A stretch of 41,683 nucleotides of DNA from Candidatus Bilamarchaeaceae archaeon (lineage in GTDB: Archaea; Micrarchaeota; Micrarchaeia; Anstonellales; Bilamarchaeaceae), in contig DATDTS010000068.1 of NCBI GenBank assembly GCA_035290745.1, forward strand, positions 1 to 41,683, given 5' to 3'. Position numbers and translations under genes: made by a program. The notes beneath the pieces were generated by a model, which saw nothing but the letters and a program-made list of their open reading frames with translations, had not been told where the DNA came from and did no database searches. Shown piece by piece: positions 3,037-37,564 of this stretch (its first letter is position 1; each line of letters begins with the position of its first letter).

Positions 3037-3049
3037 AACACCACAATAC

Positions 3050-11200: not shown

Positions 11201-12133
11201 ATGGATTTAAATGAAAAGAGGGTGCTTGTTACTGGGGGCAATGGATTCTTGGGTAATTTTGTAGTAGATGAATTAAAAAAAAAGAAAGTTGAATGTATTT
11301 CAACACCAACAAAAGGAGAGTATGACTTACTAGAAAGAAATGATGTTTATAAAATGTTGAAACAAGAATCACCAGAGGTTATAATTCACCTTGCAGCCAA
11401 AGTTGGGGGAATAGAAGCCTGCAAAAAGTACCCTGCATCTTTTTTTTATGAGAACATGGCTATGGGGTTGAACCTTTTTGAAGCTGCAAAAGACCATAAA
11501 ATAGAAAAATTTGTAGCGATAGGCTCAGTATGTGCATATCCAAAATTTGCACCAATTCCTTTCAAAGAGCAAGATTTATGGTCTGGATACCCTGAAGAAA
11601 CCAACGCACCATATGGCCTTGCGAAAAAGATGTTACTAGTAGAGGCACAGTCTTATAGAGAACAATACGGATTAAATGCGATATATTTGCTTCCAGTAAA
11701 TTTATATGGACCAGGAGATAATTTTAATCCGGAATCATCACATGTTATCCCAGCACTTATAAAAAAATTCATAGATGCAAAAGAACAAAATAAGAAAGAA
11801 GTGGTTATTTGGGGGAATGGAAGCCCGACTAGGGAATTTTTATATGTTGAAGACTGCGCCAGGGGGATTGTACTGGCAACTGAAAAATATGATAAATCAG
11901 AACCCGTAAACTTAGGTTCTGGAATGGAAATTAGCATTAATAACCTAGCAGAGTTGATAAAAAAGCTAACTGACTTTGAAGGAAAGTTAGTTTGGGACAC
12001 AACAAAACCAAATGGCCAGCCAAGGAGATTGTTTGACAACTCAAAGGCAAAAAAAGAGTTTGGTTTTATTGCAAGAATCGGATTTGAGAAAGGATTGAAA
12101 AAAACAATTGATTGGTATCTGAAAAACAGGTGA
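11201..12133 (+). CDS. fcl: GDP-4-keto-6-deoxy-D-mannose 3,5-epimerase/4-reductase family (GDP-L-fucose synthase, or the homologous GDP-L-colitose synthase ColC)
   Basis: VLVTGGNGFLG, SVCAYPK and NLYGPGDNFNPESSHVIPALIKKF are typical of Fcl/WcaG. It starts directly after the gmd stop. Confidence 0.85.
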   Translation: MDLNEKRVLVTGGNGFLGNFVVDELKKKKVECISTPTKGEYDLLERNDVYKMLKQESPEVIIHLAAKVGGIEACKKYPASFFYENMAMGLNLFEAAKDHKIEKFVAIGSVCAYPKFAPIPFKEQDLWSGYPEETNAPYGLAKKMLLVEAQSYREQYGLNAIYLLPVNLYGPGDNFNPESSHVIPALIKKFIDAKEQNKKEVVIWGNGSPTREFLYVEDCARGIVLATEKYDKSEPVNLGSGMEISINNLAELIKKLTDFEGKLVWDTTKPNGQPRRLFDNSKAKKEFGFIARIGFEKGLKKTIDWYLKNR

Positions 12134-12140
12134 AAATAAT

Positions 12141-13334
12141 ATGGATAACCTAAGACAAATTGGTGTTGGTTGTGCAGATATATCGGATAAAGAAAAAGAA
12201 TACGTGAATATTGCGTTAAATAACAACAGACTTTCTTATGGAGAATTTACCCACAAGTTTGAAAAAAGATTTGCAAAGTTGCATGATTGTAAATATGCAA
12301 TGATGTGCAATAGCGGTACAAGTGCCCTTAGAGTTGCGATTGCAGCTCTTAAAGAAACCGATGAATGGAAAGAAGATGATGAGGTTCTTGTTCCCTCTAT
12401 AACTTTTATATCAACTTCAAATGTTCTAATACAGCAAAACCTCAAACCTGTTTTTGTTGATGTAGATCCCAGGTATTACAACATAGATCCAACCAAAATT
12501 GAGGAGAAAATAACAGAGAAGACTAAGGCAATTATGCCAGTTCATTTGTTTGGTATGCCATGTGATATGGAACCAATAATGAAAATTGCAAAAAAACACC
12601 AATTACGAGTTGTTGAAGATTCTTGTGAGACTATGCTTGCAAAGTACAAAGGAAAAAGCGTTGGCTCGTTTGGAGATATTGGATGTTTCTCAACATATGT
12701 TGCACACTTGGTAGTAACCGGTGTTGGAGGTATTTCAACAACAAATGATAATGATTTGGCAATTAAAATGAAAAGTCTGATGAATCATGGCAGGGATTCT
12801 ATATATCTGCATATTGATGATGATAAAACAAATGATGAAGAGAAACTTTCGATGATAATGGAGAGAAGATTCAGTTTCGTAAGATTAGGTTATAGCTTCA
12901 GAGCAACGGAACTTGAAGGCGCACTTGGGTTAGGGCAATTAGAAATTGTAGATAAAATAGTACAAAAAAGAAGAGAAAACGCCGCATATCTTACTGAAAA
13001 ACTAGCTCATCTCGATGAACATTTACAGCTTCCAAAAATAGCCCCAGATAGGGATCACTCATTTATGATGTATCCAATAGTTGTAAAAGATCCAAAAATT
13101 AAAAGAGATGAATTGACGTTATATCTTGAAAAGAACGGAGTTGAAACCAGGTATATGCTGCCACTTTTAAACCAACCAATTTATATCAAACTTTTTGGAA
13201 ATCTTGAGGGTCAGTATCCAATTGCAAAGAATATAAACAAGAATGGATTTTATATCGGATGCCATCAAAAACTAGATAAAGAAGATTTAGATTATGTTAT
13301 ACAAACATTTAAAGAGTTCTTCTCCAAGCAATAA
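12141..13334 (+). CDS. DegT/DnrJ/EryC1/StrS-family PLP/PMP enzyme lacking the canonical Schiff-base lysine; candidate ColD-like GDP-4-keto-6-deoxy-D-mannose 3-dehydratase
   Basis: The family pattern runs from NSGTSAL to GDIGCFSTYVAHLVVTGVGGISTTND. At the position 7 residues before the GG, where aminotransferases of this family carry Lys, this protein has His, and no Lys occurs in the segment. It lies immediately downstream of gmd-fcl. Confidence 0.6.
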   Translation: MDNLRQIGVGCADISDKEKEYVNIALNNNRLSYGEFTHKFEKRFAKLHDCKYAMMCNSGTSALRVAIAALKETDEWKEDDEVLVPSITFISTSNVLIQQNLKPVFVDVDPRYYNIDPTKIEEKITEKTKAIMPVHLFGMPCDMEPIMKIAKKHQLRVVEDSCETMLAKYKGKSVGSFGDIGCFSTYVAHLVVTGVGGISTTNDNDLAIKMKSLMNHGRDSIYLHIDDDKTNDEEKLSMIMERRFSFVRLGYSFRATELEGALGLGQLEIVDKIVQKRRENAAYLTEKLAHLDEHLQLPKIAPDRDHSFMMYPIVVKDPKIKRDELTLYLEKNGVETRYMLPLLNQPIYIKLFGNLEGQYPIAKNINKNGFYIGCHQKLDKEDLDYVIQTFKEFFSKQ

Positions 13335-15544: not shown

Positions 15545-15660
15545 TTTTATGCAACTGGATTCAAACTGTTTTATGTTTTTAGTGGCTAAGTGAAACTGAG
15601 TTAAAAAATTTTCAATTTCTCATTTGAAAAACGCAATGTGCAGAAACCATACACTTCCCG

Positions 15661-15911
15661 ATGGAACTGCGTTCCATGGGTCGGAGCGAACGAAGTTCGC
15701 TAGATGCATGAAACACGGTTTCATAGCATGCAGAGAACGAAGTTCTCTCGCACAGTGCATGGAGGAGCGCGTTTTTCAAATATTTGAACGAATGACCGAC
15801 AAATCGGTATCCGATTTGTGGTCCATTGAAATCTTGGATTTCAATAGGAGCATGAAACCCAGCCACCTACAAAAGCAGAGCTTTTGGAGGGACAAAGAAC
15901 AAAGTTCTTTG
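15661..15911. repeat. array of consecutive short perfect inverted repeats (hairpins) in a GC-enriched intergenic island; candidate structured ncRNA or ssDNA element
   Basis: Nine perfect inverted repeats were read directly, each with a 3-nt loop except the 15775-15788 palindrome. 15661-15677: ATGGAAC/tgc/GTTCCAT. 15685-15701: AGCGAAC/gaa/GTTCGCT. 15708-15724: ATGAAAC/acg/GTTTCAT. 15732-15748: AGAGAAC/gaa/GTTCTCT. 15775-15788: TTCAAATATTTGAA. 15799-15819: ACAAATCGG/tat/CCGATTTGT. 15825-15845: ATTGAAATC/ttg/GATTTCAAT. 15870-15886: CAAAAGC/aga/GCTTTTG. 15893-15911: CAAAGAAC/aaa/GTTCTTTG. The confidence refers to the existence of the repeats, not to any function. Confidence 0.9.
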
Positions 15912-15953
15912 GATTTTGGCTGGGTGCTCTTCGTTCAAATCATATAAACTGCA

Positions 15954-16901
15954 CTACTCCTTCTTCATAAAATATTCAATAGTTCTCTTGAGTCCATCAT
16001 CAAGTTTTACTTTAGGTTTCCACCCTAAAAGTTTTTCAGCCTTTGAAACATCAATAGAATAGTTCATTATCTCATTTTTTTTATACTCAATAGCACCATA
16101 GTCTATTAAGGCACTTTTTCCCATAATCTTACCTATGTTTTCGGCAATGTTTTTTATTTTATAGGATTTGCCATAGCCAACATTTATTATTTCTCCACTT
16201 GTTTTTTTATGCATAGCACCTGCAATAAGTTGTGCTTCAATTAAATCATCGATGTACAAAAAATCCCTAGTCTGCTCACCAGGAGTCATTTTAAAGTTCT
16301 GACCCATGTTTAGACTTTTTATTAAAGAAGGAATAAACATTTCTTCTCCTTGTTTTGGTCCATATACGATAGTTGTTCTCAACATTATTGCTTTTATGTT
16401 GTATAATTTATAGAATAGTTTCAAAAGTTGGTCTGCCGAAGATTTTGAAAATGCATAAGGAGATTCCGGGTTATCACTCATACTTTCTGTAACCGGAATT
16501 TCTACGCTACCATACTCCTCTATAGTACCAAGAGTTATTACAGGGATAGTAAGATTAGACTTAACTAACCCATTTAGCAGATTTAAAAGTCCTATCACAT
16601 TTATATCTATCAATGAATAAAAACTTTCAACCCCTCCCCCCCTATTCTTGTCGGCTGCAAGATGGAAAATAAAATCTGGTTTGATCTCATCTATTTTGTT
16701 AATAACCTCATTTTTTTCTCTTATATCAACAAAATATTGTTTTGTTAGGTTATTTTGATAAAAAACTTTTTTTTCGTTTTTCGACATTAGGTAAACCTTT
16801 GCACCAATGTTGAGTAATCTATCCTGTAGATATGAACCAATAAAACCAGTTGCACCAGTTATAAGTACTGTCTTGTCGATATATTCCTCTTTATATCCCA
16901 T
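15954..16901 (-). CDS. NAD-dependent epimerase/dehydratase family (extended SDR), possible nucleotide-deoxysugar 4-reductase
   Basis: VLITGATGFIGSYLQDRL Rossmann motif and YAFSK catalytic motif. It lies directly downstream of rfbH on the same strand. Confidence 0.8.
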   Translation of the reverse strand: MGYKEEYIDKTVLITGATGFIGSYLQDRLLNIGAKVYLMSKNEKKVFYQNNLTKQYFVDIREKNEVINKIDEIKPDFIFHLAADKNRGGGVESFYSLIDINVIGLLNLLNGLVKSNLTIPVITLGTIEEYGSVEIPVTESMSDNPESPYAFSKSSADQLLKLFYKLYNIKAIMLRTTIVYGPKQGEEMFIPSLIKSLNMGQNFKMTPGEQTRDFLYIDDLIEAQLIAGAMHKKTSGEIINVGYGKSYKIKNIAENIGKIMGKSALIDYGAIEYKKNEIMNYSIDVSKAEKLLGWKPKVKLDDGLKRTIEYFMKKE

Positions 16902-16992: not shown

Positions 16993-18303
16993 TTATAATC
17001 TTAAGAATTTTTCGAATTGATCAACAACATACATCCTCATTTCATTTGTTAAACCAGGATATACCCCAATCCAAAATGTATTGTTCATTATATAGTCAGA
17101 ATTCTTAAGATCCCCTATAATTTCATACTTTTCATCCAAATAAGCTGGTTGACGGATTAGATTGCCTCCAAAAAGCATTCTTGTTGTAATCTTTTTTGAT
17201 TCGAGAAAAGCTACAATCTGATTTTTAGTAAACTGAACTCCTTCTCGTATAGTAAGAGGAAACCCAAAAGGACTTGGGTCTGCCTTAGGGTGTTTTTTAG
17301 GAAGAACAAAATACTCTTCATAATCTTTTAGGTTTTGATAATAATAATTAAAATTTTCTTTCCTTTTCTTGATAAATTCTGGCAGTTTCTTGAGCTGCGC
17401 AAGACCAACTGCGGCTTGCATATCAGTGACTTTAAGATTGTAACCGATATTCGAATAAATGTACTTGTGATCGTACCCTTCTGGTAATTGTCCAAGTTTC
17501 CAGCCAAACCTTTTTCCACAGGTATTTGATTCACCTGGTTGGCACCAACAGTCTCTTCCCCAGTCCCTAAAAGATTCAATTGATTTCTTCAGAATCGGCT
17601 TGGAGGTTAAAACTGCGCCGCCTTCACCCATTGTCATATGGTGCGCCGGATAAAAACTTACAGTAGCAATATCTCCAAAAGTACCAACTGGCTTTCCATC
17701 AAAGGTAGCACCAACTGCGTCACAACAATCTTCTATTAAGTACAAACCATGTTTTTTTGCAATGCTTGTGATTTTATCTAGATCAAAAGGATTGCCGAGT
17801 GTATGAGCTAATACTATTCCGCGGGTTTTTTCATCTATTGCTTCCTCAAGCAAAGTGGTATCAATATTGTAAGTACCAAGTTCAACATCCAAAAAAACTG
17901 GGACTAAACCGTTCTGAAAAATTGGATTTACCGTTGTTGGAAATCCAGCCGTGACAGTTATGATCTTTTCTCCTTTTTTGAGCCTTTTTTCCCCAAGAGA
18001 TTTTGATGTTAATGCTGATAATGCTAAAAGGTTTGCAGATGAACCTGAATTGGCAAGAAGGCAATATTTTGAACCAAAAAATGTAGCAAATTCTTTTTCA
18101 AACTCTTGTGCATATTTTCCTGCTGTAAGCCAAAAATCAAGTGAACTGTCTACTAAATTAATAATTTCTTGTTCATCATAGACCCTTCCTGCGTATGGGA
18201 TTGCTGTTTCTCCTGGTTCAAACTTTGATTTGTTGGATTTTGACAGGTAAAACTGTTTAACAAGATTAAAGATAGCCCTCTTAATATCCGTATCTTCTTT
18301 CAT
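16993..18303 (-). CDS. rfbH: CDP-4-keto-6-deoxy-D-glucose 3-dehydratase (E1; RfbH/DdhC-type PMP enzyme)
   Basis: 436 aa, which is the RfbH size. The hallmark SFYPAHHMTMGEGGAV has His in place of the aminotransferase Lys. LANSGSSANLLA and WIGVYPGLT are also present. Confidence 0.85.
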   Translation of the reverse strand: MKEDTDIKRAIFNLVKQFYLSKSNKSKFEPGETAIPYAGRVYDEQEIINLVDSSLDFWLTAGKYAQEFEKEFATFFGSKYCLLANSGSSANLLALSALTSKSLGEKRLKKGEKIITVTAGFPTTVNPIFQNGLVPVFLDVELGTYNIDTTLLEEAIDEKTRGIVLAHTLGNPFDLDKITSIAKKHGLYLIEDCCDAVGATFDGKPVGTFGDIATVSFYPAHHMTMGEGGAVLTSKPILKKSIESFRDWGRDCWCQPGESNTCGKRFGWKLGQLPEGYDHKYIYSNIGYNLKVTDMQAAVGLAQLKKLPEFIKKRKENFNYYYQNLKDYEEYFVLPKKHPKADPSPFGFPLTIREGVQFTKNQIVAFLESKKITTRMLFGGNLIRQPAYLDEKYEIIGDLKNSDYIMNNTFWIGVYPGLTNEMRMYVVDQFEKFLRL

Positions 18304-18390
18304 AATTAGTTTACCAATACATAAGTTTTTATTTGATTCGAAACAGCAGAATATTAACGCTAAATCTAAGTAAACTTGTGAGTGGGAATA

Positions 18391-19269
18391 ATGGAAGAAA
18401 TAAATGCCGCAATAATAGGAAGCGGGAACATAGGTTCTGATCTTCTAGTAAAAATAATTAGGTCAAAATACATAAAATGTTCACTATTTGTAGGACGAGA
18501 TCTAAATTCTAAGGGAATAATACATGCTAAGAAATTAGGTATAAAAACAAGTTCTGAATCGATAGAGGCACTTGAAAAAGAATCTGGAAAATATGATATA
18601 ATTTTCGATGCTACAAGTGCGGAAATGCATAAACAGAATTCTCAAAGATTGTCAAAATTAGAAAAATTTGTAATAGACCTAACCCCAGCCAAAACCGGAA
18701 AGATGTGTGTTCCTTATATGAATTTAAAGGAATGCTTAAAAGAAAAAGAAATAAACCTAGTCAGTTGTGGTGGTCAGGCAACCATACCAGTAGCACATGT
18801 GATAAAAGAAACTTATCCTGATGTTAAATACATTGAAAATGTAACCTCAATTGCATCAAAATCAGCAGGACCTGCAACAAGACAAAATATCGATGAATAT
18901 GTTCAAACTACTCAAGATGCAATTAGATATTTCTCATCTGTAGACAAAACCAAGGTAATTTTAAACCTAAATCCAGCAGATCCACCTATTAACATGCATA
19001 ATACTACATATGTAGAAGTGAATGATGATATAGACCTTCCATTATTGAATATCAAACTAAAAGAGATGGTTAAAAAAATACAATCATATGTTCCAGGTTA
19101 TAACCTATTTCTTGGCCCATTATATAAAGATGGGGTAATAACTATTATGAATGAGGTAGTTGGACTGGGAGATTACCTACCAAAATATGCAGGAAATATG
19201 GACATTATGACCTGCGCAGCATTAACCGTAGCTGAGGAATATTCTAAAGGTATGATGAAAAAAAGATGA
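18391..19269 (+). CDS. acetaldehyde dehydrogenase (acetylating), DmpF/MhpF family
   Basis: AAIIGSGNIGSDLLVKI Rossmann motif and the catalytic-Cys motif SCGGQATIP. About 292 aa from the ATG at 18391; the ORF-track GTG at 18382 is an alternative start. Confidence 0.85.
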   Translation: MEEINAAIIGSGNIGSDLLVKIIRSKYIKCSLFVGRDLNSKGIIHAKKLGIKTSSESIEALEKESGKYDIIFDATSAEMHKQNSQRLSKLEKFVIDLTPAKTGKMCVPYMNLKECLKEKEINLVSCGGQATIPVAHVIKETYPDVKYIENVTSIASKSAGPATRQNIDEYVQTTQDAIRYFSSVDKTKVILNLNPADPPINMHNTTYVEVNDDIDLPLLNIKLKEMVKKIQSYVPGYNLFLGPLYKDGVITIMNEVVGLGDYLPKYAGNMDIMTCAALTVAEEYSKGMMKKR

Positions 19270-19273
19270 ATAT

Positions 19274-20299
19274 ATGAAAATCCCATTGATTATAGATTCA
19301 ACATTAAGGGATGGATCCCATGCAATGAGACACCAGTTTAGCTCGGAGAATATTACAGAGTATGCGGCAGGTGCAGAACGAGCAAGAGTTCCATTATTAG
19401 TTGTTGGGCACGGTAATGGATTAGGTGCAAGTTCATTACAATTAGGCAAAAGTTTACTCTCAGATTCTGAAATGATTTCGCTAGCTAGAAAACAACTTAA
19501 ACATACCAAACTTGGTGTTTTTATAATTCCAGGGTTCGGAACTGTTAGAGATGATTTAAAGCCTGCATTATCCTTGGGTGCTGACGTAATATTTGTAGCG
19601 TCTCATTGTTCTGAAGCGGATATCACCCAAACGCATATCAATTATTTAAAAAAACAGAATAGAAAGGCTATTGGGGTTCTAATGATGAGTCACATGCTTT
19701 CAGCTGATGAATTAGTTGAACAAGCTGATAAAATGCAAGAATATGGTGCTTATGGGGTTATGTTAATGGATTCAGCAGGTGCTTTATTGCCAACAGAGGT
19801 CAAAGAAAGAGTTTCCGCATTAGTTTCTAACCTAAGTATTAAAGTTGGTTTTCATGCCCATAACAACTTAGGGTGTGCAATTGCAAATTCTTTAGCAGCA
19901 TTAGAAGCAGGAGCTGGGATAATAGATACAACTTCAAGAGGACTAGGTGCAGGTGCAGGAAACTGCCAATTGGAAGTTTTTGTTGGTGTATTACATAAAA
20001 AAGGCATACAAACAGAAATTAATTTATACTGTGCAATGGATAATAGTGAAGAAATTGTAGCTAAATTTATGAAAAAACCACAGGTTATAAGTAGCACCAG
20101 TCTAGCAAGTGGATTGGCTGGGGTGTTTTCAGGATTTTGTCCAATTGCAGAAAAGGTATCAAAACAATTTGGTGTTGATCCGAGAGATATTTTAATGGAA
20201 CTGGGTAAAAGAAAGATTGTAGCAGGACAAGAAGATTATATTACTGATGTGGCTGCTGAACTGGCAAGGAAAAAAGCCTTTGGAGAAACAAGTTTATAG
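19274..20299 (+). CDS. 4-hydroxy-2-oxovalerate aldolase-like (DmpG/MhpE family, HMGL-like TIM barrel)
   Basis: IIDSTLRDGSHAMRHQF and GFHAHNNLGCAIANSLAALEAGA are DmpG-type motifs. It starts 5 nt after the DmpF-like stop, which is the canonical DmpFG pairing. Confidence 0.85.
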   Translation: MKIPLIIDSTLRDGSHAMRHQFSSENITEYAAGAERARVPLLVVGHGNGLGASSLQLGKSLLSDSEMISLARKQLKHTKLGVFIIPGFGTVRDDLKPALSLGADVIFVASHCSEADITQTHINYLKKQNRKAIGVLMMSHMLSADELVEQADKMQEYGAYGVMLMDSAGALLPTEVKERVSALVSNLSIKVGFHAHNNLGCAIANSLAALEAGAGIIDTTSRGLGAGAGNCQLEVFVGVLHKKGIQTEINLYCAMDNSEEIVAKFMKKPQVISSTSLASGLAGVFSGFCPIAEKVSKQFGVDPRDILMELGKRKIVAGQEDYITDVAAELARKKAFGETSL

Positions 20300-20306
20300 T
20301 GATACT

Positions 20307-21068
20307 ATGAAAAACACGACGTCTATTAAAAAGAGGCTTAAAGAAGGTGAAACTATCATTGGGACGTGGTGTTTAATTCCATCACCCCATGTAATAAATA
20401 TACTAGCAAATTCAGGTTTAGACTTTGTGTTAATTGACATGGAACATGGACCAATTAATATAACAGTTGCATCAGAGATGGTTTTAGCAACTGAAGAAAA
20501 ATGTGACGTATTAATCAGAGTTCCGAAAAATGATCCTGCACATATTCAATATGTTCTCGATATTGGTAGTTGTGGAGTTGTTATACCACATATCAAAAAT
20601 GTGGAGGACAGAAAAAAGGCTGTTTCTTATGTTAAATACCCTCCTATTGGTGATAGGGGGTTCTCTCCATATACCAAAGCTGGAAATTATACAAATAAAA
20701 CCACCCATACACGAATCCATAACGAAAACACGATTACAGCAATAATGATAGAAGATAAACATGCTCTAGATAATTTAGATCAAATCATAGATGACGAAAA
20801 TGTTGATATAGTTTATATTGGAACATATGATTTATCAGTTGCCCTTGGTATCCCAGGAGATGTTTCAAATCCAAAAGTTTTAAGTGAATTAGAAAAAGCT
20901 GTTAAAACCATTCATAAAAAAGGTAAAATTGCTGGGTGTATGGCACACAATAAAGCTGATCTTGACAAATTTAAGCAGTTGGGCATAACATTCGTTCTCT
21001 TCAAGGTTGATACCTCTATAATATCCGACGCTATTAAAAAAATCAAAACGGAGGATGAGACCGCATGA
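20307..21068 (+). CDS. HpcH/HpaI-family class II (pyruvate-dependent) aldolase
   Basis: GTWCLIPSPHVINILANSGLDFVLIDMEHGP, VLIRVP and GTYDLSVALG fit the HpaI/YfaU/GarL-type family. The start is trimmed to ATG at 20307, just past the upstream stop. Confidence 0.8.
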   Translation: MKNTTSIKKRLKEGETIIGTWCLIPSPHVINILANSGLDFVLIDMEHGPINITVASEMVLATEEKCDVLIRVPKNDPAHIQYVLDIGSCGVVIPHIKNVEDRKKAVSYVKYPPIGDRGFSPYTKAGNYTNKTTHTRIHNENTITAIMIEDKHALDNLDQIIDDENVDIVYIGTYDLSVALGIPGDVSNPKVLSELEKAVKTIHKKGKIAGCMAHNKADLDKFKQLGITFVLFKVDTSIISDAIKKIKTEDETA

Positions 21069-22840
21069 TTCGCGTGGCGGACTATGTGGCAGAGTTCATT
21101 TACAATTCCGGAGTAAAACACATCTTTTTAGTTACTGGGGGAGGTGCAATGCATCTCAATGATGGCATAGCAGCTCATAAAAAAATTAAATACGTTTGTT
21201 GTCATCATGAACAAACAGTTTCTATGGCAATTGAATCATACTCAAGAATTACAGAGAATCTTGGCGTTGGATGTGTAACCTCCGGTCCTGGTGGTACAAA
21301 TACTGTCACTGGAATAGTAAGTGCATGGCAAGATTCAATCCCGTGCATGATTATATCAGGGCAATCAAAGAGGAAAGAAACCATTGCACATTCAAAACTA
21401 GATGGTTTAAGACAATTTGGAAGTCTTGAGGTTAATATTGTAGATATTGTGAAATCAATCACTAAATATTCAGTTATGGTTATGGATCCGAAAATGATCC
21501 GTTATCATCTTGAAAAAGCAGTATATCTCGCAAAAAGCGGAAGACCTGGGCCTGTATGGATTGATGTACCCTTAGATGTTCAGGGTGCAATGGTCGATCA
21601 AAATACCTTAAAAAAGTTTACCCCGCCAGAAAAAAAGCAACCGGATATCTCCAAATCTCTAAAAGAACTAATTAAATTGTTAAAAAATGCCAAAAAACCT
21701 GTTGTAATTGCAGGTTCTGGAATTAGATCTGCAAAGGCCATTCCTCAATTTCTTTCATTTATTGAAAAAACAAACATCCCAACAGTTAATACTTTTATGA
21801 GCCTTGATATTATAGAAAATGACCATAGCTTATACATTGGAAGACTTGGAACAAAAGGGAATAGAGCTGCAAACTTTGCTGTTCAGAATGCCGATTTACT
21901 TATAGCAATAGGTACCAGCCTAAAAGTAACGGTTATAGGCTATGAATATGATTTGTTTGCACCAAAAGCAAAAAAAGTAGCAATAGATATAGATCCAATA
22001 GAACATAAAAAACCAACAATAAAAATAGATCTTTTTATTGAATCTGACGCAAAATATTTTCTAGAGGAGTTGTATAAGGAATGTAAGGATGAAAACATAA
22101 CCTCACCAGATCTTTGGAAAACAGTTTGTTCTAATTGGAAAAATAAATATCCACCTGTACTCGTATCTCAAGAATCAGATGAGATAGATATGTATTATTT
22201 TGTAGATCGTCTCTCAAACCATACTAAAAAAGAGGACATTATAATATGTGATGCTGGTTATCCATTTTATGTAGTGGCACAAGCATTAAGATTGAAAGAG
22301 GGGCAGAGGTACATAACTCCAGGAAGTCTTGGTACGATGGGGTATAATCTTCCTGCTGCTATAGGTGCCTCAACTGCTGATAAAAGTAAAAGGGTAATAT
22401 GTATTACAGGTGATGGTTCATTACAAATGAACATACAAGAGCTTCAGACGATTGTACACAACTCCATACCAGTAAAAATATTTGTCTTGAACAATTGTGG
22501 GTATGTATCGATTAAAGAAGCTCAGCTTAGATATTTTGGAAGAGTTATTGGCGCAGGAAAAGACACAGGGATATCATTTCCAGAATTATCCAAAATAGCC
22601 AATGCATATGGAATCAAATACATTACCGTATCTAATCCTAGCGAACTAGATACTGTTATAAAATCAACCTTAGAATATGATGAACCGGTTATCTGCGACA
22701 TTAAAACCACACAAAATCAAAAGATTAGTCCTATAGTAACTTCTGAGATAAGGCCTGATGGTTCCATGGTTTCAAAACCACTTGATGACATGTATCCTTT
22801 TTTAGATAGAAAGACATATTTCAATGAAACGAATGTATAA
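21065..22840 (+). CDS. thiamine-diphosphate-dependent enzyme, acetolactate-synthase-large-subunit-like three-domain architecture (YerE-like candidate)
   Basis: 591 aa. The N-terminal Pyr domain reads FLVTGGGAMHLND...HEQTVSMA. The ThDP motif is GDGSLQMNIQELQT...IFVLNNCGY (GDG-x-NN). Its ATGA start overlaps the aldolase stop. Confidence 0.85.
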   Translation: MIRVADYVAEFIYNSGVKHIFLVTGGGAMHLNDGIAAHKKIKYVCCHHEQTVSMAIESYSRITENLGVGCVTSGPGGTNTVTGIVSAWQDSIPCMIISGQSKRKETIAHSKLDGLRQFGSLEVNIVDIVKSITKYSVMVMDPKMIRYHLEKAVYLAKSGRPGPVWIDVPLDVQGAMVDQNTLKKFTPPEKKQPDISKSLKELIKLLKNAKKPVVIAGSGIRSAKAIPQFLSFIEKTNIPTVNTFMSLDIIENDHSLYIGRLGTKGNRAANFAVQNADLLIAIGTSLKVTVIGYEYDLFAPKAKKVAIDIDPIEHKKPTIKIDLFIESDAKYFLEELYKECKDENITSPDLWKTVCSNWKNKYPPVLVSQESDEIDMYYFVDRLSNHTKKEDIIICDAGYPFYVVAQALRLKEGQRYITPGSLGTMGYNLPAAIGASTADKSKRVICITGDGSLQMNIQELQTIVHNSIPVKIFVLNNCGYVSIKEAQLRYFGRVIGAGKDTGISFPELSKIANAYGIKYITVSNPSELDTVIKSTLEYDEPVICDIKTTQNQKISPIVTSEIRPDGSMVSKPLDDMYPFLDRKTYFNETNV

Positions 22841-22851
22841 ATTGTGATGAT

Positions 22852-23748
22852 ATGAGTAAGAAAAATATTTTTTTAACTGGTGGTACGGGATTTATTGGGA
22901 AAAATATTCTGGAACAGTTGTCCGATAAGTACAATATATACGCCCCAACTCATCCAGAATTAGAACTGGATGATACTGAAGCAGTCAAGGAGTATACAAA
23001 ATCCCATAATTTTGATGTAGTAATCCATGCTGCAAATTGGGGAGGAACCAGAAAAAAAACAGATGATCTTGTGAATAATGTTGAAAAAAATCTGAAGTTT
23101 TTTTTCAATATAACACGTTGTAAAGACCATTTTGGTAAGTTAATTAATTTAGGAAGTGGTGCAGAATATGGAAAGTTGTATTATACACCAAAGATGAAAG
23201 AGGACTATTTTGATAAACATGTGCCTGTAGATGAATATGGATTCTACAAGTATGTATGTTCTAAGTATATTGAAAAAATTGAAGATGCAGTTAATTTAAG
23301 AATATTTGGTTGTTATGGAAAATATGAAGATTACGAGATCAGATTTATTTCCAATGCTATATGTAAATCCATTTTTGATCTACCAATCACAATAGCAAAT
23401 AAAAATGTTTTTTTTGATTATTTGTACATCGATGATTTAATTAAAATAATAGAATATTTCATAAATAATACGGGAGAACATAGAGTCTATAATATAACAC
23501 CAGATAAATCTATTGATTTACTAACAATTGCTAAAAAAGTAAATAAAATAGCTGGAAAAAATTCAGAAATTATTATAAAAAATAAGGGAATTAACTTAGA
23601 ATATAGCGGAGACAACTCAAGATTAAAGGGCGAGATAAAAGGAATTAAATTTACTGAGATTGAAGATGGAATAAAAAAATTACATGAGTGGTACACAAAG
23701 AACAAAAAATTAGTTGAGTATGATAAGATTTCTATGGACAGATACTAA
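22852..23748 (+). CDS. NAD-dependent epimerase/dehydratase-family reductase (SDR), paralog A
   Basis: NIFLTGGTGFIGKNILEQL and YGFYKYVC (YxxxK). It is the last gene of the plus-strand aldolase/ThDP operon. Confidence 0.8.
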   Translation: MSKKNIFLTGGTGFIGKNILEQLSDKYNIYAPTHPELELDDTEAVKEYTKSHNFDVVIHAANWGGTRKKTDDLVNNVEKNLKFFFNITRCKDHFGKLINLGSGAEYGKLYYTPKMKEDYFDKHVPVDEYGFYKYVCSKYIEKIEDAVNLRIFGCYGKYEDYEIRFISNAICKSIFDLPITIANKNVFFDYLYIDDLIKIIEYFINNTGEHRVYNITPDKSIDLLTIAKKVNKIAGKNSEIIIKNKGINLEYSGDNSRLKGEIKGIKFTEIEDGIKKLHEWYTKNKKLVEYDKISMDRY

Positions 23749-24665
23749 AATTTAGACAAAGAACTTGATGGACTGCATTTATTTAAATATTCATTAGAAG
23801 CAATCTTTTTATCATCAATCAGATGCATATTTTGTTTGTAAAAATCAAAAAGATTTCTAATAGAAGAGCGATAGGTAGAGAATTTAAAATCGCCTAATTC
23901 AGTTTTAAGCCTTGAATTGTCACCACTATAAGTATAATTTAAACCATCGTTTATAATTTTTATGGAAGATTTCTTGCTAGACACAGAGTTGATAATATCT
24001 GAAACTTCCAAAAGGCTTATTGATTTGTTGGGAGAGAGATTATATGTTTTGTGTTTAGGTTTGTTTTTTATAAAATAATCTAAAATCTCCAGAAGATCTT
24101 GGATATAGATATAATCAAAAACGACGTTTTGATTAAGGATAATATCAAGACCTAAAATATTTCTAACTATGGCATTTGAAATAAACCTAAAATAACAATT
24201 TTCATACTTACCAAAAACACCAAATAGTCTTAAGTTGATAATGTTTTTTGATTTTTCAGTAAAATTGGCACAGACATATTTATAAAAACCATAGTCGTCT
24301 TTTGGAATACATTGGCCGAATTCTTCTTCTTTTATTTTTGACAAGTTACGATTTTTATCATATTCTGCACCAGATCCAAAATAGATTATTTTGTCTAAAC
24401 TATCAGCATGTCTAACAATGTTAAAAAAAATTCTTAAATTGTCACGAACTACATAACTCAAATCAGTAGTTGCTCTGTCCCCGCCCCTGTTTGCACAATG
24501 GATTATAGTGCCTATTTTATGTTTCTTTATATACTGACTAACTGCATTTTCATCTAGTAAGTCCAATTCAACATGAGAAGGTGAAAATATTGTATACTTT
24601 TCGTTAAAGTATTCATATATATTCTTACCTATAAAGCCAGTTCCACCGGTAACAAAAATATTCAT
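23745..24665 (-). CDS. NAD-dependent epimerase/dehydratase-family reductase (SDR), paralog B
   Basis: MNIFVTGGTGFIGKNIYEYF and YGFYKYVC. About half the residues are identical to 22852-23748 in a by-eye alignment. The start is trimmed to ATG at 24665. Confidence 0.8.
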   Translation of the reverse strand: MNIFVTGGTGFIGKNIYEYFNEKYTIFSPSHVELDLLDENAVSQYIKKHKIGTIIHCANRGGDRATTDLSYVVRDNLRIFFNIVRHADSLDKIIYFGSGAEYDKNRNLSKIKEEEFGQCIPKDDYGFYKYVCANFTEKSKNIINLRLFGVFGKYENCYFRFISNAIVRNILGLDIILNQNVVFDYIYIQDLLEILDYFIKNKPKHKTYNLSPNKSISLLEVSDIINSVSSKKSSIKIINDGLNYTYSGDNSRLKTELGDFKFSTYRSSIRNLFDFYKQNMHLIDDKKIASNEYLNKCSPSSSLSKF

Positions 24666-24751
24666 ATAACCTACCAACTTACCTAATACTATATTTATGA
24701 ATGACTTTAAAATTTTATCTTTATTACAAGCTTAGAGAACAAATAAAACAA

Positions 24752-25831
24752 CTACTCGCTAGGTCGTGCATGTACTCTTTCCCTGTTTTTTTGTATAAAT
24801 GTCTTCTTTTTAAAAAGTCTACAATAAGAGTAATAGAAAATAGCTATAAACTTTCTAATAGAATAAAATTGGAACAAAAAACAAATGATATAACAAAAAA
24901 ACGATAGAAAAGAAAAAGGATTTTGTCTTAGTTGCACTGATTTGAGTTTTTGAAGAACATCAATGAACTTTCTTTTTTTAGCTTCGTCTTTATCATCATT
25001 GAATATTGCAGATAAAACAAAAAAGTTTCTAAGATCTAATTTTAAATCGCAACTTTTTAAGTTGTGAGGGATACAAAAATCTCGATTCAAATCATCGTTA
25101 AGTTGAAGTCCTTTACCAAAACGAACCAAGTATATATCCAAATCAAACAAGTCTCCAAAACCTTGATATAAAACAACTGGGCGTTTCATAACACAAAATT
25201 TCTTAGAATTTAAAATAGATTTTAACGCAAAATAGGTCTGTTCGTAACTACCATATCTCCCAAATGGGAAAGGAAATTGCTTAATTAAATCAGTATTATA
25301 AACATTAACAAAGATGCCAGTAGAAGCTAAAAGAACATGCCGAATAACCTCTTTGTTTTTTTCAATCCCCTCATAACAAATAAAACCTGGAGTGTTAGAG
25401 TCTAAAACATCCGAAAAATTAAGAATATTGCTCTTATCAGCCCTTATTGCATTGCAAGCTAGGTAACTGACATCTCCCTCTTTTGTGAGATAGCTTATTA
25501 ATAAACTTAGTCTTCCAGGAATGAAATCGTCATCGTCACCTATAGTGAAAGTATACTTACCACTTGCCATTTCCAAAATTTTTTTAAAGTTGAGCGTAAA
25601 TCCTATGTTTTTATCAAATATATTTGTTTTTACTTTAATCTTAGGATTTTCTAAAATAAACTTTTTTATAATTTCTTGAGTATTATCCGTAGATCCATTA
25701 TCAGATATACAAAGTTCAATTTTATCTTCAAGATTTATTGTTTCCAACTTTAATTGATTTAGAGTTGATTCCAAAAAAACGGCTCGGTTGTAAGTAGGAA
25801 TACAAATGCTCAAAATTGGTCTTTTAGGCAT
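24752..25831 (-). CDS. glycosyltransferase family 2 with hydrophobic C-terminal segment
   Basis: LSICIPTYNRAVFLESTLNQL...ELCISDNGSTDNT and GDDDDF (DxD). Confidence 0.85.
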   Translation of the reverse strand: MPKRPILSICIPTYNRAVFLESTLNQLKLETINLEDKIELCISDNGSTDNTQEIIKKFILENPKIKVKTNIFDKNIGFTLNFKKILEMASGKYTFTIGDDDDFIPGRLSLLISYLTKEGDVSYLACNAIRADKSNILNFSDVLDSNTPGFICYEGIEKNKEVIRHVLLASTGIFVNVYNTDLIKQFPFPFGRYGSYEQTYFALKSILNSKKFCVMKRPVVLYQGFGDLFDLDIYLVRFGKGLQLNDDLNRDFCIPHNLKSCDLKLDLRNFFVLSAIFNDDKDEAKKRKFIDVLQKLKSVQLRQNPFSFLSFFCYIICFLFQFYSIRKFIAIFYYSYCRLFKKKTFIQKNRERVHARPSE

Positions 25832-25849: not shown

Positions 25850-26827
25850 TTAAGACCTTTTCAGATATTTGATATACCACGGAATTGTCTTATCAAGACC
25901 TTCGTCAATTGAATATCTAGATTCCCAGTTAAGTATTTTCTTAGCTTTTTCAGTGGAGAGGTATTGATTTTTTATTTCCCCTTTTGCATGGTTAAGTATC
26001 TCAGGTTTTAAAGTGGATTTCATCTTTTTTAGAACTAGATTTACAATATCTAATACTCTAAACTTATTTTCTGTACTTATATTAAATGCCTGTCCATTAA
26101 CTTTTTTATCACCAATTTTTTCACCAATACAGAGATATGCGTCAACAACATCTTCAACAAATAAATAATCTCTTATATACGTTCCATCGCTTCTTATAGT
26201 TGGTCGCTCATTAAAAACTACAGAGCGAATTGTTCCTGGGATAAGACGATTGAAATTCAAATCTCCGGGACCATAAATGTTTCCACAACGTGCAATAGAA
26301 ACAGGCAAACCATAGGTATGGTAGTATGATTGCACTATCAAATCAGAACAACTCTTAGAAGCATCGTATGGATGCCTTCCTTGTAAAGGAGTTTCTTCAG
26401 TATATGGAAGCTTTTCCTGATCACCATAAGCTTTATCAGAAGAAGCAAAAACAATTCTTTTAACAAGTTGGGAATTACGACACGCTTCCATAACATTCCA
26501 TGTTCCTTTAATGTTTGATTCAAATGTTGAAAGAGGAGATCTATTTGCAGTTCCAACAATTGTTTGGGCACCTAAATGAAAAACAGAATCGATCTCATAT
26601 TCGTTTAAAGCACGTTCAATAACAAAATAATCTTCTAGTCCACCATGAACTACATTCACAGCATTTAATTTAGAGGAACTAACTAGTAAAGAATTTGGAA
26701 TATGGTCTCTCATCAAGATAGTTATATTAGCACCTAGTTCAACAAATTTAGTACTAAGCCAAGAACCCAAAAGTCCCGATGCACCAGTTATAAACACATT
26801 CTTTTGAAGCCAAAAACTATCCTTCAT
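25850..26827 (-). CDS. rfbG: CDP-glucose 4,6-dehydratase
   Basis: [21 protein letters not shown] is an RfbG-type N-terminus, and YDASK is the catalytic motif. The start is trimmed to ATG at 26827, which overlaps the rfbF stop (TAATG). Confidence 0.8.
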
Positions 26828-27615
26828 TAATCCCACACCTTCCACGGCTTTTTACCTGAATCCCACATTTGGTTAAGTTCAAGATAGTCTTTATAAGTAT
26901 CCATTGCATGCCAAAATCCATTATGTTCAAAAAACGAGAATTGTTTATTAGTTACCAATTCCGTAAATGGCTTTCTTTCAAGTATACAATTATCATCATC
27001 ATCTAAATAATCAAAAATATCTTTTTTGAATGAAAAAAATCCTCCACCAACATAATCTTCTAGAACGGGTTTTTCAACAAACTCTTGAATTAAACCATTT
27101 TTACCAGGTTTAACCATACCAAATTTAGAACTTGGATGGACTGCTGTTAAAGTAGCAATGGTGTTTTGTTTCTTATGGAATGTATATAGCGAATCAAGGT
27201 TAACGTCCGACAATCCATCACCATATGTTGCCAAAAAATTATCAGAGTCTACGTATTTTTCGATCCTTTTTATTCGAGCACCAGTTTGTGCTTTTAAGCC
27301 AGTTTCTGCAAAGGTGACCGTCCAATCTTCCTCTTCTTTACCATGGTATTTTAGGTTATTTGAATGATCTTTAAGCATTATAGTAAAATCATTGTGCATC
27401 ATCTGATGGGAAAGAAAGAAATTTTTAATCGAATACCCCTTATACCCCAAACAGAGAATAAAATTGTCAAAACCATAATGTGAATATGTTTTCATAATAT
27501 GCCATAAAATTGGTAATCCTCCTATGCTAACCATTGGTTTTGGCTTGTATTCTGTTTCTTCTTTCAGACGGGTTCCTTCTCCCCCACATAAAATAACTAC
27601 AGGCGGTTTTTCCAT
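26827..27615 (-). CDS. rfbF: glucose-1-phosphate cytidylyltransferase
   Basis: [55 protein letters not shown] is the RfbF hallmark. 262 aa. Confidence 0.9.
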
Positions 27616-27628: not shown

Positions 27629-28564
27629 CTAGGTGATTATTTGATTGTGAACTAAAATATTTATAATGGAATCATAAATTTGTGATTCGCCTAGTCCGTT
27701 TTTGTCTCTCAGGTACTGATGAGAACCTACATATTTACAAAACATATCTGGCAAGGCGAATCTTTTAAATATAATATTTACACCGTTGTCTGCCAAAACT
27801 TCAGCAGTAGCACTCCCTAATCCACCAATTATACTGTGCTCTTCAATGCTAAAAATAGCTTTGGTATCCAACGCGGCTTTTAAGATTGCTTTTTGATCTA
27901 TAGGTTTTATAGTATGCATACTTATTAATCTGGTCGAAATTCCTCTCTTTTCAAGGGATAAACTGACCAAATGTGCAGTTTTTAGCATATTGCCAGTAGC
28001 TATAATTGTTATGTCACTTCCCTTCTTGACTATGATTGACTTTCCAATAGTAAACAACGGTTTAGTAGTATGTACGTGAGGATCACCATTCCTTCCGAGA
28101 CGGATATAGGCTGGCCCATGATAAGAATAAACCGCTCTTGCACATAGCTCAGCTTCAATTGGATCTCCAGGACAAATTACAACCATATTCGCAAGAGATC
28201 TCATAATAGAGATATCCTCAACAGCATGGTGAGTTGGTCCAAGTGAACCATAGGTAAGCCCACCACCGGAACCAACAAGTTTAACGTTTGCGTTCTGGTT
28301 ACAAACGTCATCCCTTATTTGTTCGAAACACCGCATGGTTAAGAAAGTTGATATAGAATATGAAAAAACAGTTTTACCTGATAAAGCAAGTCCTGCCGAG
28401 ATTCCAATCATATTAGCTTCTGCAACTCCGGTGTTTAGAAAACGATCTGGGAAATCTTGCTGAAATCTTTCAAAAAACGAAAACCCCATGTCTGCACTAA
28501 CTAAAAAAGTACTTTTATCTTTCTTAAAAATTTCATACAAAACATTGGTGAATGAATTTCTCAT
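27629..28564 (-). CDS. transketolase, C-terminal subunit (Pyr-binding plus C-terminal domain)
   Basis: FLNTGVAEANMIGISAGLALSGK and GPTHHAVEDISIMR. The start is trimmed to ATG at 28564, which overlaps the N-subunit stop (ATGA). Confidence 0.85.
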   Translation of the reverse strand: MRNSFTNVLYEIFKKDKSTFLVSADMGFSFFERFQQDFPDRFLNTGVAEANMIGISAGLALSGKTVFSYSISTFLTMRCFEQIRDDVCNQNANVKLVGSGGGLTYGSLGPTHHAVEDISIMRSLANMVVICPGDPIEAELCARAVYSYHGPAYIRLGRNGDPHVHTTKPLFTIGKSIIVKKGSDITIIATGNMLKTAHLVSLSLEKRGISTRLISMHTIKPIDQKAILKAALDTKAIFSIEEHSIIGGLGSATAEVLADNGVNIIFKRFALPDMFCKYVGSHQYLRDKNGLGESQIYDSIINILVHNQIIT

Positions 28565-29376
28565 TTGTGATCGAGCTCCTTTAGTGCATCTATACATTGT
28601 TTTTCATTTGGAGAGTGGTAATGCCATTCTAATTTATTTTCCATAAATGAAATCCCTTTTCCTTTGATAGTATGGCAGATTATGGCGGTAGGTTTATTGC
28701 CTTCAAAAGGAATTTTAGAAAAAGTATTTACAAGTTGTTGAATATTATGTCCATCCACTTCTTCTGCCCTCCAACCAAAAGAACGCCATTTATCCGAAAA
28801 TGGCTCCAGATCCATCACTTCTTTTACATTACCAAAACTTTGTATTTTATTATAATCAATAATAGCAATAACGTTGTTAAGTTTATAATGTCCTGCAGAC
28901 ATGATAGCCTCCCAAGTTGATCCTTCATCACATTCTCCATCACTGAGTAAAACAAAAACACGAGACTTTTTCTTATCATATCTTGATGCAAGGGCCATAC
29001 CAATTCCTAATGATAAACCATGCCCTAAAGAACCAGTAGATGCTTCAATTCCAGGAGCAGTACCCAAAGTCGAATGCCCTAAAAGTTTACCGCCATCTTT
29101 ATAGAATTCGTCAAGAAAACTCATCGGAAAGTAACCTCTTTCCGCAAGTGTTGCATAAAGCGCTACACTCGAATGACCTTTACTAAGAATAAAAATATCA
29201 CGATTTGGATCCTTTGGGCGTTCCGGATTAATAGCTAAGATCTCAAAATAAAGAGTTGTAAGTATGTCTATAATAGATAATGCAGAACCAATGTGAGATG
29301 CTTTCCCATTTGTCACCATCTTAATAGCATGTTTACGTATGTTTTTGGCATGTTCAACTAATTCTAAAAGATCCAT
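28561..29376 (-). CDS. transketolase, N-terminal (ThDP/PP-binding) subunit
   Basis: HIGSALSIIDIL, LSKGHSSVALYA, GSLGHGLS and LLSDGECDEGSTWEA...IIDYN (GDG-type ThDP motif). Confidence 0.85.
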   Translation of the reverse strand: MDLLELVEHAKNIRKHAIKMVTNGKASHIGSALSIIDILTTLYFEILAINPERPKDPNRDIFILSKGHSSVALYATLAERGYFPMSFLDEFYKDGGKLLGHSTLGTAPGIEASTGSLGHGLSLGIGMALASRYDKKKSRVFVLLSDGECDEGSTWEAIMSAGHYKLNNVIAIIDYNKIQSFGNVKEVMDLEPFSDKWRSFGWRAEEVDGHNIQQLVNTFSKIPFEGNKPTAIICHTIKGKGISFMENKLEWHYHSPNEKQCIDALKELDHK

Positions 29377-30721: not shown

Positions 30722-30782
30722 ACAGTTTTTATTATTAGATAATATTAAAAATACAAAGATCAAGAAGGAGAATGGTGTCTTT

Positions 30783-37546: not shown

Positions 37547-37564
37547 ACAATAACTGTGTATATT

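Follow-up and report, generated by a model that had tools for sequence, protein, structure and literature searches.

Why should a small archaeal genome carry, in the middle of a nucleotide-sugar cluster, an aldehyde dehydrogenase and aldolase pair of the DmpF/DmpG type, whose family models are named after catabolic enzymes? The question is raised by a contig of 41,683 nt from the metagenome-assembled genome (MAG) of a Candidatus Bilamarchaeaceae archaeon (Micrarchaeia, DPANN), which was analysed over its entire length and is called the window in this text. On its plus strand, an operon of five genes (18391–23748, Table 1) encodes a DmpF-like acylating aldehyde dehydrogenase, a DmpG-like aldolase, an HpcH/HpaI-family aldolase, a thiamine diphosphate (ThDP) dependent enzyme and a short-chain dehydrogenase/reductase (SDR). 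An earlier reading of the bare sequence (referred to as the original prediction) had the ThDP enzyme act on the product of the neighbouring RfbH, with DmpF and DmpG supplying 4-hydroxy-2-oxovalerate and a reduction as the last step, and this proposal is backed by homology, by gene context and by the biochemistry of ErwE (PMC9306805). In our view the five genes, together with rfbH, rfbG and rfbF, are likely to be a cassette for a C-4 acyl-branched 3,6-dideoxyhexose of the erwiniose type. The case is built on homology and gene context, from which the substrates, products and stereochemistry of the window proteins are inferred.

For erwiniose itself a pathway has been put forward in Pectobacterium atrosepticum SCRI1043 (Steitz et al. 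2022, PMC9306805). Its donor, (R)-4-hydroxy-2-oxopentanoate, would be formed by ErwJ (BphJ/DmpF-like) and ErwI (BphI/DmpG-like). The YerE-like enzyme ErwE is then proposed to couple this donor to CDP-4-keto-3,6-dideoxyglucose, and reduction by ErwF gives erwiniose (PMC9306805). In vitro, ErwE accepted (R)-4-hydroxy-2-oxopentanoate together with a ketone surrogate of the CDP-ketosugar and rejected pyruvate; the 4R configuration occurs in both erwiniose and caryophyllose (PMC9306805).

The architecture of the locus was recovered as the original prediction had described it. All of its open reading frames (ORFs) were found where it had placed them, a small AT-rich archaeal genome is what a Micrarchaeia MAG with a contig GC content of 0.29–0.37 represents, and profile searches against Pfam and NCBIfam returned the families it had named (DmpF-like, DmpG-like, HpcH/HpaI, ThDP enzyme resembling acetolactate synthase (ALS), SDR). 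The first four genes are tightly coupled, with intergenic gaps of 4 nt and 7 nt followed by an ATGA overlap, and the SDR gene begins 11 nt further on. The rfbH gene diverges from the operon across 87 bp, and a minus-strand run containing rfbG and rfbF converges on it.

The ThDP enzyme resembles YerE-like carboligases

The ThDP protein finds biosynthetic ALS as its top NCBIfam match, yet it stays under every ALS equivalog cut-off (TIGR00118: 409 bits, cut-off 538). Among solved structures the best match is JanthE (8rph, 405 bits), followed by PpYerE (5ahk, 270 bits) and by plant and bacterial acetohydroxyacid synthases (AHAS), which reach at most 254 bits. By these scores the enzyme does not group with the housekeeping acetolactate synthases, in line with the original prediction. 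The alignment with JanthE runs from end to end and covers a C-terminal motif, L-[ED]-D-M-[YF]-P-F-L (L-D-D-M-Y-P-F-L in the window), and those with PpYerE and AHAS stop short of it. The protein retains the catalytic Glu (HHEQ) as well as the GDG motif. No ilvN, ilvC or ilvD gene was found in the 41.7-kb contig. The acceptor-binding arginine of the AHAS 'RFDDR' motif was considered as a class discriminator and dropped, because the residue is Arg in JanthE and PpYerE and Ser in the window protein.

The structure 8rph is that of JanthE, a member of the YerE-like subclass (PMC12188165, PMC12247030). A 2025 review treats the 'YerE-like' enzymes as a subclass and cites an in-silico survey that covered over 200 members (PMC12247030). 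JanthE takes long and hydroxylated 2-oxoacid donors as well as ketone acceptors, and its physiological role is not known (PMC12188165). Pyruvate is used by YpYerE and is among the donors of JanthE (PMC12247030, PMC12188165).

In a protein collection, more than 8,000 proteins match the ThDP enzyme at E<1e-30, including entries from Methanoperedens, Methanolobus, Altiarchaeales and Thaumarchaeota. Scanning GTDB species genomes for the C-terminal motif plus a second motif located relatives in at least 590 stretches and added Methanoregula and Pacearchaeota. Nothing relevant on enzymes of the YerE-like kind, or on pathways to 3,6-dideoxyhexoses, in archaea or DPANN came out of a literature search.

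DmpF, DmpG and a non-catabolic active-site signature

Both partners of the pair exceed the cut-offs of their NCBIfam models (DmpF-like: TIGR03215, 354 bits against 282; DmpG-like: TIGR03217, 395 bits against 286), and both models are named as catabolic equivalogs. The best structural matches of the DmpF-like protein are the acetaldehyde dehydrogenases 7z3s, 4lrs_B, 4jn6_B and 1nvm_B, and it keeps the SCGGQATIP motif with the catalytic Cys. The catalytic residues R17/D18/H21/H200/H202 of DmpG (1NVM numbering) are intact. Since its communication domain (DmpG_comm) is present as well, the two proteins probably act as a complex.

The stereocontrol residues set the window protein apart. At positions 88 and 291 (1NVM numbering, equal to BphI 87 and 290), all four solved catabolic enzymes (1nvm, 8ih7, 4jn6, 4lrs) have Leu and Tyr, and the window protein has Phe and Phe. 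Among its 120 closest homologues, the Tyr291 position is occupied by Phe in all 120 and the Leu88 position in 108, with invariant catalytic residues; Phe291 is also found in all cassette-linked DmpGs extracted from eight loci. BphI is strictly 4S, the exchange Y290F abolishes its 4S stereocontrol, and the double exchanges L87W/Y290F or L87N/Y290F make it 4R-specific (PMC3962088). By analogy with these mutants, the natural Phe/Phe pair leads us to predict the 4R enantiomer of 4-hydroxy-2-oxopentanoate as product, which matches the enantiomer that ErwE needs. The signature appears to separate a glycan-linked DmpG clade from the catabolic enzymes of the same name, and the original prediction was right in keeping this DmpG apart from the catabolic type. 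Genes for a hydratase, a hydrolase or ring cleavage were found neither in the 41.7-kb contig nor in the related loci inspected.

Linkage to rfbH, rfbF and rfbG is conserved

The window proteins were compared by tblastn with 80 genome loci, each having a ThDP homologue of 42–51% identity at its centre, a set in which Pectobacterium, Yersinia and Mycobacterium are not represented. An rfbH gene (at least 45% identity) is present in 45 of these loci. Where the full 10-kb flanks are available (47 loci), rfbH occurs in 28 and rfbF within 10 kb in 30. Seventy of the 80 loci have neither a DmpG-like nor an HpcH-like gene. The genes for DmpF and DmpG adjoin the ThDP gene in L003, L008, L049 and L050 (our own locus numbers), and in L005 dmpG is located at the contig end; an HpcH gene adjoins it in L003, L005, L008, L014 and L017. 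The full order DmpF-DmpG-HpcH-ThDP recurs in L001, L083, L003 and L008 and partly in L005. With the reductase included, the order is DmpF-DmpG-ThDP-SDR in L082 and L084 and DmpF-DmpG-HpcH-ThDP-SDR in L083. L001 is a sister genome with 97–99% identical DNA and carries the same operon.

The closest relatives of DmpG (62–80% identity) come from Micrarchaeota, Parvarchaeota, Curtissbacteria, Acidoferrales and metagenome contigs. Three neighbourhoods of close relatives (L082–L084; 65–77% identity; Micrarchaeota, Curtissbacteria and a metagenome contig) were inspected, and all of them are glycan clusters beside rfbF/G/H. Together with the 80 loci, they bear out the expected linkage of the cassette to rfbH/F/G across phyla.

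The HpcH aldolase

The HpcH protein is about equally distant from the GarL, HpaI and YfaU models (136–157 bits), all of which leave it under the NCBIfam equivalog cut-offs. Its best structural matches are HpaI (139 bits) and YfaU (130 bits), and the catalytic His, Arg, Glu and Asp positions are kept, as judged by eye. It is thus apparently a catalytically intact second pyruvate aldolase that would belong to the donor-building genes.

The closest relatives (44–56% identity) are always encoded immediately upstream of a YerE-like ThDP gene of about 600 aa. They occur in two contexts, either in DmpFG+HpcH cassettes or in a second cassette with an HMGL-like/MptE-like fusion. An HMGL-type aldolase followed by an HpcH aldolase and a ThDP enzyme is a repeated design. 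The second cassette stands beside rfbF/G/H in several bacterial lineages (L014 5724–11806; L085–L088) and consists of genes for a Fer4/LdpA_C Fe-S protein, a HAD hydrolase, the HMGL-like+MptE-like fusion (about 575 aa), HpcH, a YerE-like ThDP enzyme and an SDR; no description of it was found in the literature examined.

In a neighbour-joining (NJ) tree calculated without support values, the ThDP proteins group by cassette type (DmpFG only, DmpFG+HpcH, HpcH only). This grouping suggests that the donor-building genes and the ThDP enzyme have co-evolved and that the donor differs between cassette types. Possible roles of HpcH are a second aldol extension, the provision of an alternative donor, or the handling of an unwanted enantiomer. 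The last of these, HpcH as a corrector of stereochemistry, gains no support, because residue 88 of DmpG (Leu or Phe) does not correlate with the presence of HpcH. Of the donor supply by the aldehyde dehydrogenase and two aldolases that had been envisaged, the DmpF/DmpG part holds and the specific role given to HpcH is unsupported.

Reductase, acceptor genes and glycosyltransferase

An SDR gene also directly follows the ThDP gene in L001, L082, L083 and L084, and 20 of the 80 loci have a homologue of the window SDR (35–54% identity) close to the ThDP gene. The SDR at 22852–23748 is presumably a side-chain ketoreductase of the ErwF/YerF type. RfbH has HH at the aminotransferase Lys position and a C-x-C-x7-C motif (CWCQPGESNTC), both of which we take to be marks of RfbH/E1 enzymes, and it would make the 4-keto-3,6-dideoxy acceptor. 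The GT2 gene is found in the same place in the sister genome (98% identical) and is, by its position, possibly the candidate transferase for the branched sugar.

Proposed pathway and alternatives

RfbF, RfbG and RfbH would convert glucose-1-phosphate to CDP-4-keto-3,6-dideoxy-D-glucose. The DmpF-like enzyme would turn acetyl-CoA into acetaldehyde with NAD(P)H, and the DmpG-like enzyme would join acetaldehyde to pyruvate, giving 4-hydroxy-2-oxopentanoate, predicted to be 4R. The ThDP enzyme would decarboxylate the 2-oxoacid and join the acyl-anion equivalent so formed to the CDP-ketosugar at its C-4 carbonyl, which would yield a tertiary alcohol. Reduction of the side-chain ketone by the SDR would leave a 1,3-dihydroxybutyl branch and an erwiniose-like sugar, to be placed in a surface glycan by a glycosyltransferase, possibly GT2 (24752–25831). 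Because the host is a DPANN archaeon, this glycan cannot be the O-antigen of a lipopolysaccharide (LPS). Depending on the substrate of HpcH, the branch may be longer than that of erwiniose or different from it.

Several points weigh against this assignment. The RfbG-like protein scores well under the cut-off of the CDP-glucose 4,6-dehydratase model TIGR02622, its best NCBIfam match (199 against 278 bits), and RfbF misses that of TIGR02623 by about 3 bits (297.5 against 300.25). A gene for E3, the AscD/RfbI-type [2Fe-2S] flavoprotein (a ferredoxin-NAD(P) reductase), was sought and not found in the 41.7-kb contig, so that RfbH would need a reductase encoded elsewhere. As some E1 homologues run on general cellular reductases, this absence weakens the assignment and does not refute it. 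In the HMGL-MptE/HpcH cassette, the Fe-S protein could be a stand-in for the absent E3. The erwiniose scheme gives HpcH no task, and as cassettes with DmpFG only exist (L082, L084, L049, L050), a different product is the probable consequence of the extra gene. The NJ tree, besides being without support values, places the DmpFG+HpcH cassettes in two groups and not in one. Finally, orthology to ErwE/I/J/F, YerE and MMAR_2331/2332 is indirect, the window proteins having been likened to them by published descriptions.

A job for HpcH would follow if both aldolases built one donor: HpcH would lengthen what DmpG makes, or an aldehyde obtained from that product, by a further pyruvate or aldehyde unit, and the chain passed on by the ThDP enzyme would exceed C4 in length or branching, resulting in an undescribed sugar. 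HpcH is always encoded between an HMGL-type aldolase and the ThDP enzyme, here as in the HMGL-MptE cassette, the order DmpFG+HpcH is kept in at least five lineages, and the NJ tree separates the ThDP proteins of DmpFG-only cassettes from those of DmpFG+HpcH cassettes. The caryophyllose cluster (with an aldolase of the HpcH/citrate-lyase family) and the gastriose cluster likewise pair an aldolase with a YerE-like enzyme and use donors of up to C8 (PMC9306805). We nevertheless consider this explanation unlikely, as no enzyme of the cassette obviously converts the first aldol product to an aldehyde, no known glycan structure fits such a product, and DmpG residue 88 varies independently of HpcH.

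The opposite simplification, a yersiniose-type reaction in which the ThDP enzyme adds a C2 branch from plain pyruvate and DmpFG and HpcH serve acetaldehyde/pyruvate housekeeping or a non-sugar substituent, appears quite improbable to us. It would agree with the use of pyruvate by YpYerE and its acceptance by JanthE (PMC12247030, PMC12188165), and with the 70 of 80 related loci that do without DmpG-like and HpcH-like genes. However, the four window genes are translationally coupled, and the cassette is kept as a unit across archaea and bacteria. We know of no evident use that DPANN organisms or those of the candidate phyla radiation (CPR) would have for a meta-cleavage aldolase. ErwE, which stems from a DmpFG-type cluster, rejects pyruvate (PMC9306805). 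We give still less credence, and very little in absolute terms, to a catabolic or housekeeping operon of meta-cleavage DmpFG and an acetolactate synthase for branched-chain amino acids that has come to lie in the glycan island by chance. The NCBIfam labels point that way, being catabolic for DmpF and DmpG and biosynthetic ALS for the ThDP protein, but the latter falls far short of the ALS cut-off (409 against 538 bits) and matches JanthE far better than AHAS. Moreover, the contig is devoid of ilvN/ilvC/ilvD, hydratase and ring-cleavage genes, the stereocontrol residues of DmpG are unlike those of all solved catabolic enzymes, and the linkage to rfbH is conserved across phyla. An erwiniose-type cassette is the reading that we prefer.

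A possible second, exchangeable ThDP module

The window and the sister genome L001 are collinear but for three indels, one of which is the 318-nt insert described further below. A 4.2-kb insert found only in L001, between the two SDR genes (genes at L001 13036–16656), encodes three proteins, namely a second ALS/YerE-like ThDP enzyme with 40% identity to the first one, a genuine PanB (320 bits against a cut-off of 208) and a 2-hydroxyacid dehydrogenase. The product of PanB, ketopantoate, is a gamma-hydroxy-2-oxoacid, the donor class preferred by ErwE-like enzymes. Only in the window, a split transketolase of 1.8 kb stands beside rfbF; it is absent at the L001 site, and its halves score 277 and 199 bits with NF004559. 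Transketolase genes are also found near YerE-like genes in L036, L050 and L084. The second SDR, next to the swapped module, is the only island protein compared whose identity to the sister genome drops as low as 76%, and it is probably the reductase of the second branching module.

Split-gene transketolases have been proposed, not demonstrated, as ketosugar branching enzymes (PMC12247030). The one in the window could be a second ThDP enzyme for branching or a transketolase with a housekeeping role. Our hypothesis is that the island has a second module for branch donation, exchangeable and working on the same ketosugar; we keep it at that level, since a split gene is also how archaea normally encode their housekeeping transketolase. 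As a more far-reaching and tentative suggestion, the cassette (DmpFG, HpcH, ThDP enzyme and SDR) might make an undescribed branched higher-carbon sugar on the surfaces of DPANN archaea and of those CPR and other bacteria that share it, with a side chain from two aldolases that is longer or more branched than C4. No earlier pathway to a C-branched 3,6-dideoxyhexose would then have been recognised among Archaea. With the second, strain-swappable ThDP module, one organism might make two branched sugars from one CDP-ketosugar.

Gene layout

The features of the locus are collected in Table 1. The convergent minus-strand run comprises, in this order, the second SDR, GT2, rfbG-like, rfbF-like, split transketolase and flavoprotein genes; the last of these encodes an amine-oxidase-family flavoprotein (29426–30763) and ends the rfbF operon in the window and in the sister genome. 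For the DmpF-like gene, the ATG at 18391 is taken as start, and the mechanical ORF begins at a GTG at 18382. For HpcH, a start at 20247 (273 aa, 53-nt overlap with dmpG) is given both by the mechanical ORF and by the sister contig's gene call. The start at 20307 given by the original prediction is favoured, because homologues measure only 248–256 aa. No Rfam family reached its gathering threshold anywhere in the window.

Table 1. Genes and other features at the dmpFG-hpcH-ThDP locus (positions in the window)
Feature	Position	Strand	Evidence or remark
RfbH/E1, CDP-6-deoxy-L-threo-D-glycero-4-hexulose-3-dehydrase	16993–18303	-	NF011936 713 bits, cut-off 423
Divergent intergenic region, presumed promoters	18304–18390		87 bp, rfbH to dmpF-like gene
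DmpF/BphJ/ErwJ-like acylating acetaldehyde dehydrogenase	18391–19269	+	TIGR03215, PF09290
DmpG/BphI/ErwI-like class II pyruvate aldolase	19274–20299	+	TIGR03217, DmpG_comm
HpcH/HpaI-family class II pyruvate aldolase	20307–21068	+	PF03328 105 bits
YerE/ErwE/JanthE-like ThDP carboligase, 591 aa	21065–22840	+	three TPP domains
Extended SDR, NAD-dependent epimerase/dehydratase family	22852–23748	+	PF01370 83 bits
Second SDR	23745–24677	-	49% identity to first SDR
GT2 glycosyltransferase	24752–25831	-	PF00535 73 bits
RfbG-like NDP-hexose 4,6-dehydratase	25850–26845	-	TIGR02622 199 bits, cut-off 278
RfbF-like glucose-1-phosphate cytidylyltransferase	26827–27615	-	TIGR02623 297.5 bits, cut-off 300.25
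Split transketolase	27629–29376 (C-terminal half 27629–28597, N-terminal half 28561–29376)	-	Pfam Transketolase_N, Transket_pyr, Transketolase_C

Other features of the glycan island

Between a GT4 gene and an SDR gene, the window contains a GC-rich insert of 318 nt (15624–15941; GC 0.45 versus about 0.31 in the flanks) that is cleanly absent from the sister genome, where the flanks are 97–99% identical. It folds as two tandem units of about 160 nt, each with a closing stem of 11–13 bp and several perfect hairpins of 7–10 bp with 3-nt loops, and its minimum free energy z-scores are -11.6 on the plus and -12.2 on the minus strand. The insert has no Rfam match, and the mechanical ORF in it has no Pfam match. 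Its first unit recurs at 85–94% identity in an unrelated context on another archaeal metagenome contig (L090 1884–2105), between genes resembling those for AMP phosphorylase and ribose-1,5-bisphosphate isomerase. Possible identities of the insert are a mobile hairpin element and a structured RNA that has not been described. A further contig, L089 (1–2423), is 99.8% identical to window 15650–16897, a stretch that runs through the structured insert and the SDR gene at 15954–16901, and then goes on into a PurE-like gene where the window has rfbH. It may stem from a population variant in which the rfbH-dmpFG cassette is missing or relocated, or else be a chimeric contig.

Upstream, at 10157–13334 on the plus strand, genes encode Gmd (499 bits against a cut-off of 415), an SDR resembling GDP-fucose synthase/ColC (324 bits, under the cut-off) and a DegT-family protein that would be ColD-like and has RfbH as its best match (271 bits, under the cut-off). 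They resemble a GDP-colitose-type route, and the island may make a second 3,6-dideoxyhexose. Four genes on the minus strand (2032–4899) resemble those for NDP-glycero-manno-heptose synthesis; they encode a HddA-like GHMP kinase, a GmhA-like SIS isomerase, a nucleotidyltransferase and a GmhB-like HAD phosphatase, and each stays under its equivalog cut-off. Directly downstream of the glycan island follow, on the plus strand, a gene for a 598-aa protein without Pfam match (35669–37465) and genes for a T2SSE-type ATPase and a T2SSF-type membrane protein (37556–40400), resembling archaeal type IV pilus or archaellum assembly.

Significance

If the erwiniose-type assignment is true, the presence of DmpF and DmpG in tiny DPANN and CPR genomes would be explained as glycan-building, and their annotation as enzymes of aromatic catabolism would mislead metabolic reconstruction. 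The 2022 'unifying scheme' for acyl-branched sugars, which had covered a few (myco)bacteria, would come to include Archaea and many uncultured phyla. The Phe/Phe DmpG clade is a predicted source of 4R-selective pyruvate aldolases, and the relatives of the ThDP enzyme would offer a large pool of JanthE-like carboligases with which tertiary alcohols could be made. The unexplained HpcH and the putative swappable ThDP module hint at sugar structures that are still unseen.

Comparison with known systems

The original prediction knew of no characterised system with this gene combination, but a system of this logic exists in the erwiniose cluster, with DmpF-like, DmpG-like, YerE-like ThDP and reductase genes (PMC9306805). 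The published 'unifying scheme' was in effect re-derived from raw sequence, and the mechanism was right in kind. Like the window, the erwiniose cluster has DmpF/BphJ-like and DmpG/BphI-like enzymes, a YerE-like ThDP enzyme and an NAD(P)H reductase beside genes for CDP-4-keto-3,6-dideoxyglucose, of which rfbG and rfbF are putative in the window, and the proposed logic is shared as well: an aldolase-built gamma-hydroxy-2-oxoacid donor, its attachment by the ThDP enzyme and a final reduction. The window differs by the extra HpcH/HpaI aldolase between dmpG and the ThDP gene, by a contig without an E3 reductase gene and by its host, a DPANN archaeon instead of a gammaproteobacterium. The gene order is J-I-(H)-E-F in the window, whereas consecutive accessions (WP_011093010-13) suggest E-F-J-I in Pectobacterium.

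Yersiniose A synthesis by YerE and YerF in Yersinia pseudotuberculosis shares with the pathway proposed for the window the ThDP-dependent C-4 branching of CDP-4-keto-3,6-dideoxy-D-glucose, the subsequent ketoreduction and the acceptor genes of rfbF/G/H type. YerE takes pyruvate and needs no donor-building genes, whereas three of them (dmpF, dmpG, hpcH) are coupled to the ThDP gene in the window, and the window enzyme is distant from the solved YerE homologue PpYerE (270 bits, versus 405 for JanthE). JanthE from Janthinobacterium sp. HH01 (8rph/8rpi/8rpj) is the closest solved structure and aligns over its full length, C-terminal segment included, but it has an unusual CDG ThDP motif in place of the canonical GDG of the window protein.

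For caryophyllose, MMAR_2331 (aldolase/citrate-lyase family) goes together with MMAR_2332, and gastriose also involves an aldolase and a YerE-like enzyme; the YerE-like enzymes of both clusters take longer donors, up to C8 (PMC9306805). The caryophyllose, gastriose and R. palustris clusters (MMAR_2331/MMAR_2332; MygI/MyGE/MygF) resemble the window in combining an aldolase, a YerE-like ThDP enzyme and a reductase, with branches of C6–C7. The window has a PF03328 protein that overlaps the start of the ThDP gene by 4 nt and is likened to MMAR_2331 by family description. Unlike the window, these clusters have no DmpFG described, and the aldehyde partner and the product differ.

The catabolic pairs DmpFG, BphIJ and HsaFG (meta-cleavage, cholesterol) agree with the window proteins in fold, in domain architecture including the communication domain, in catalytic residues and in passing the NCBIfam cut-offs. 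They differ in context (aromatic catabolism as opposed to glycan biosynthesis), in direction (cleavage as opposed to presumed synthesis) and in the Leu/Tyr pair that is Phe/Phe in the window. Set against the published systems, the pathway type is already known; what is new is the archaeal host from the Micrarchaeia, the extra HpcH aldolase and the putative strain-variable second ThDP module.

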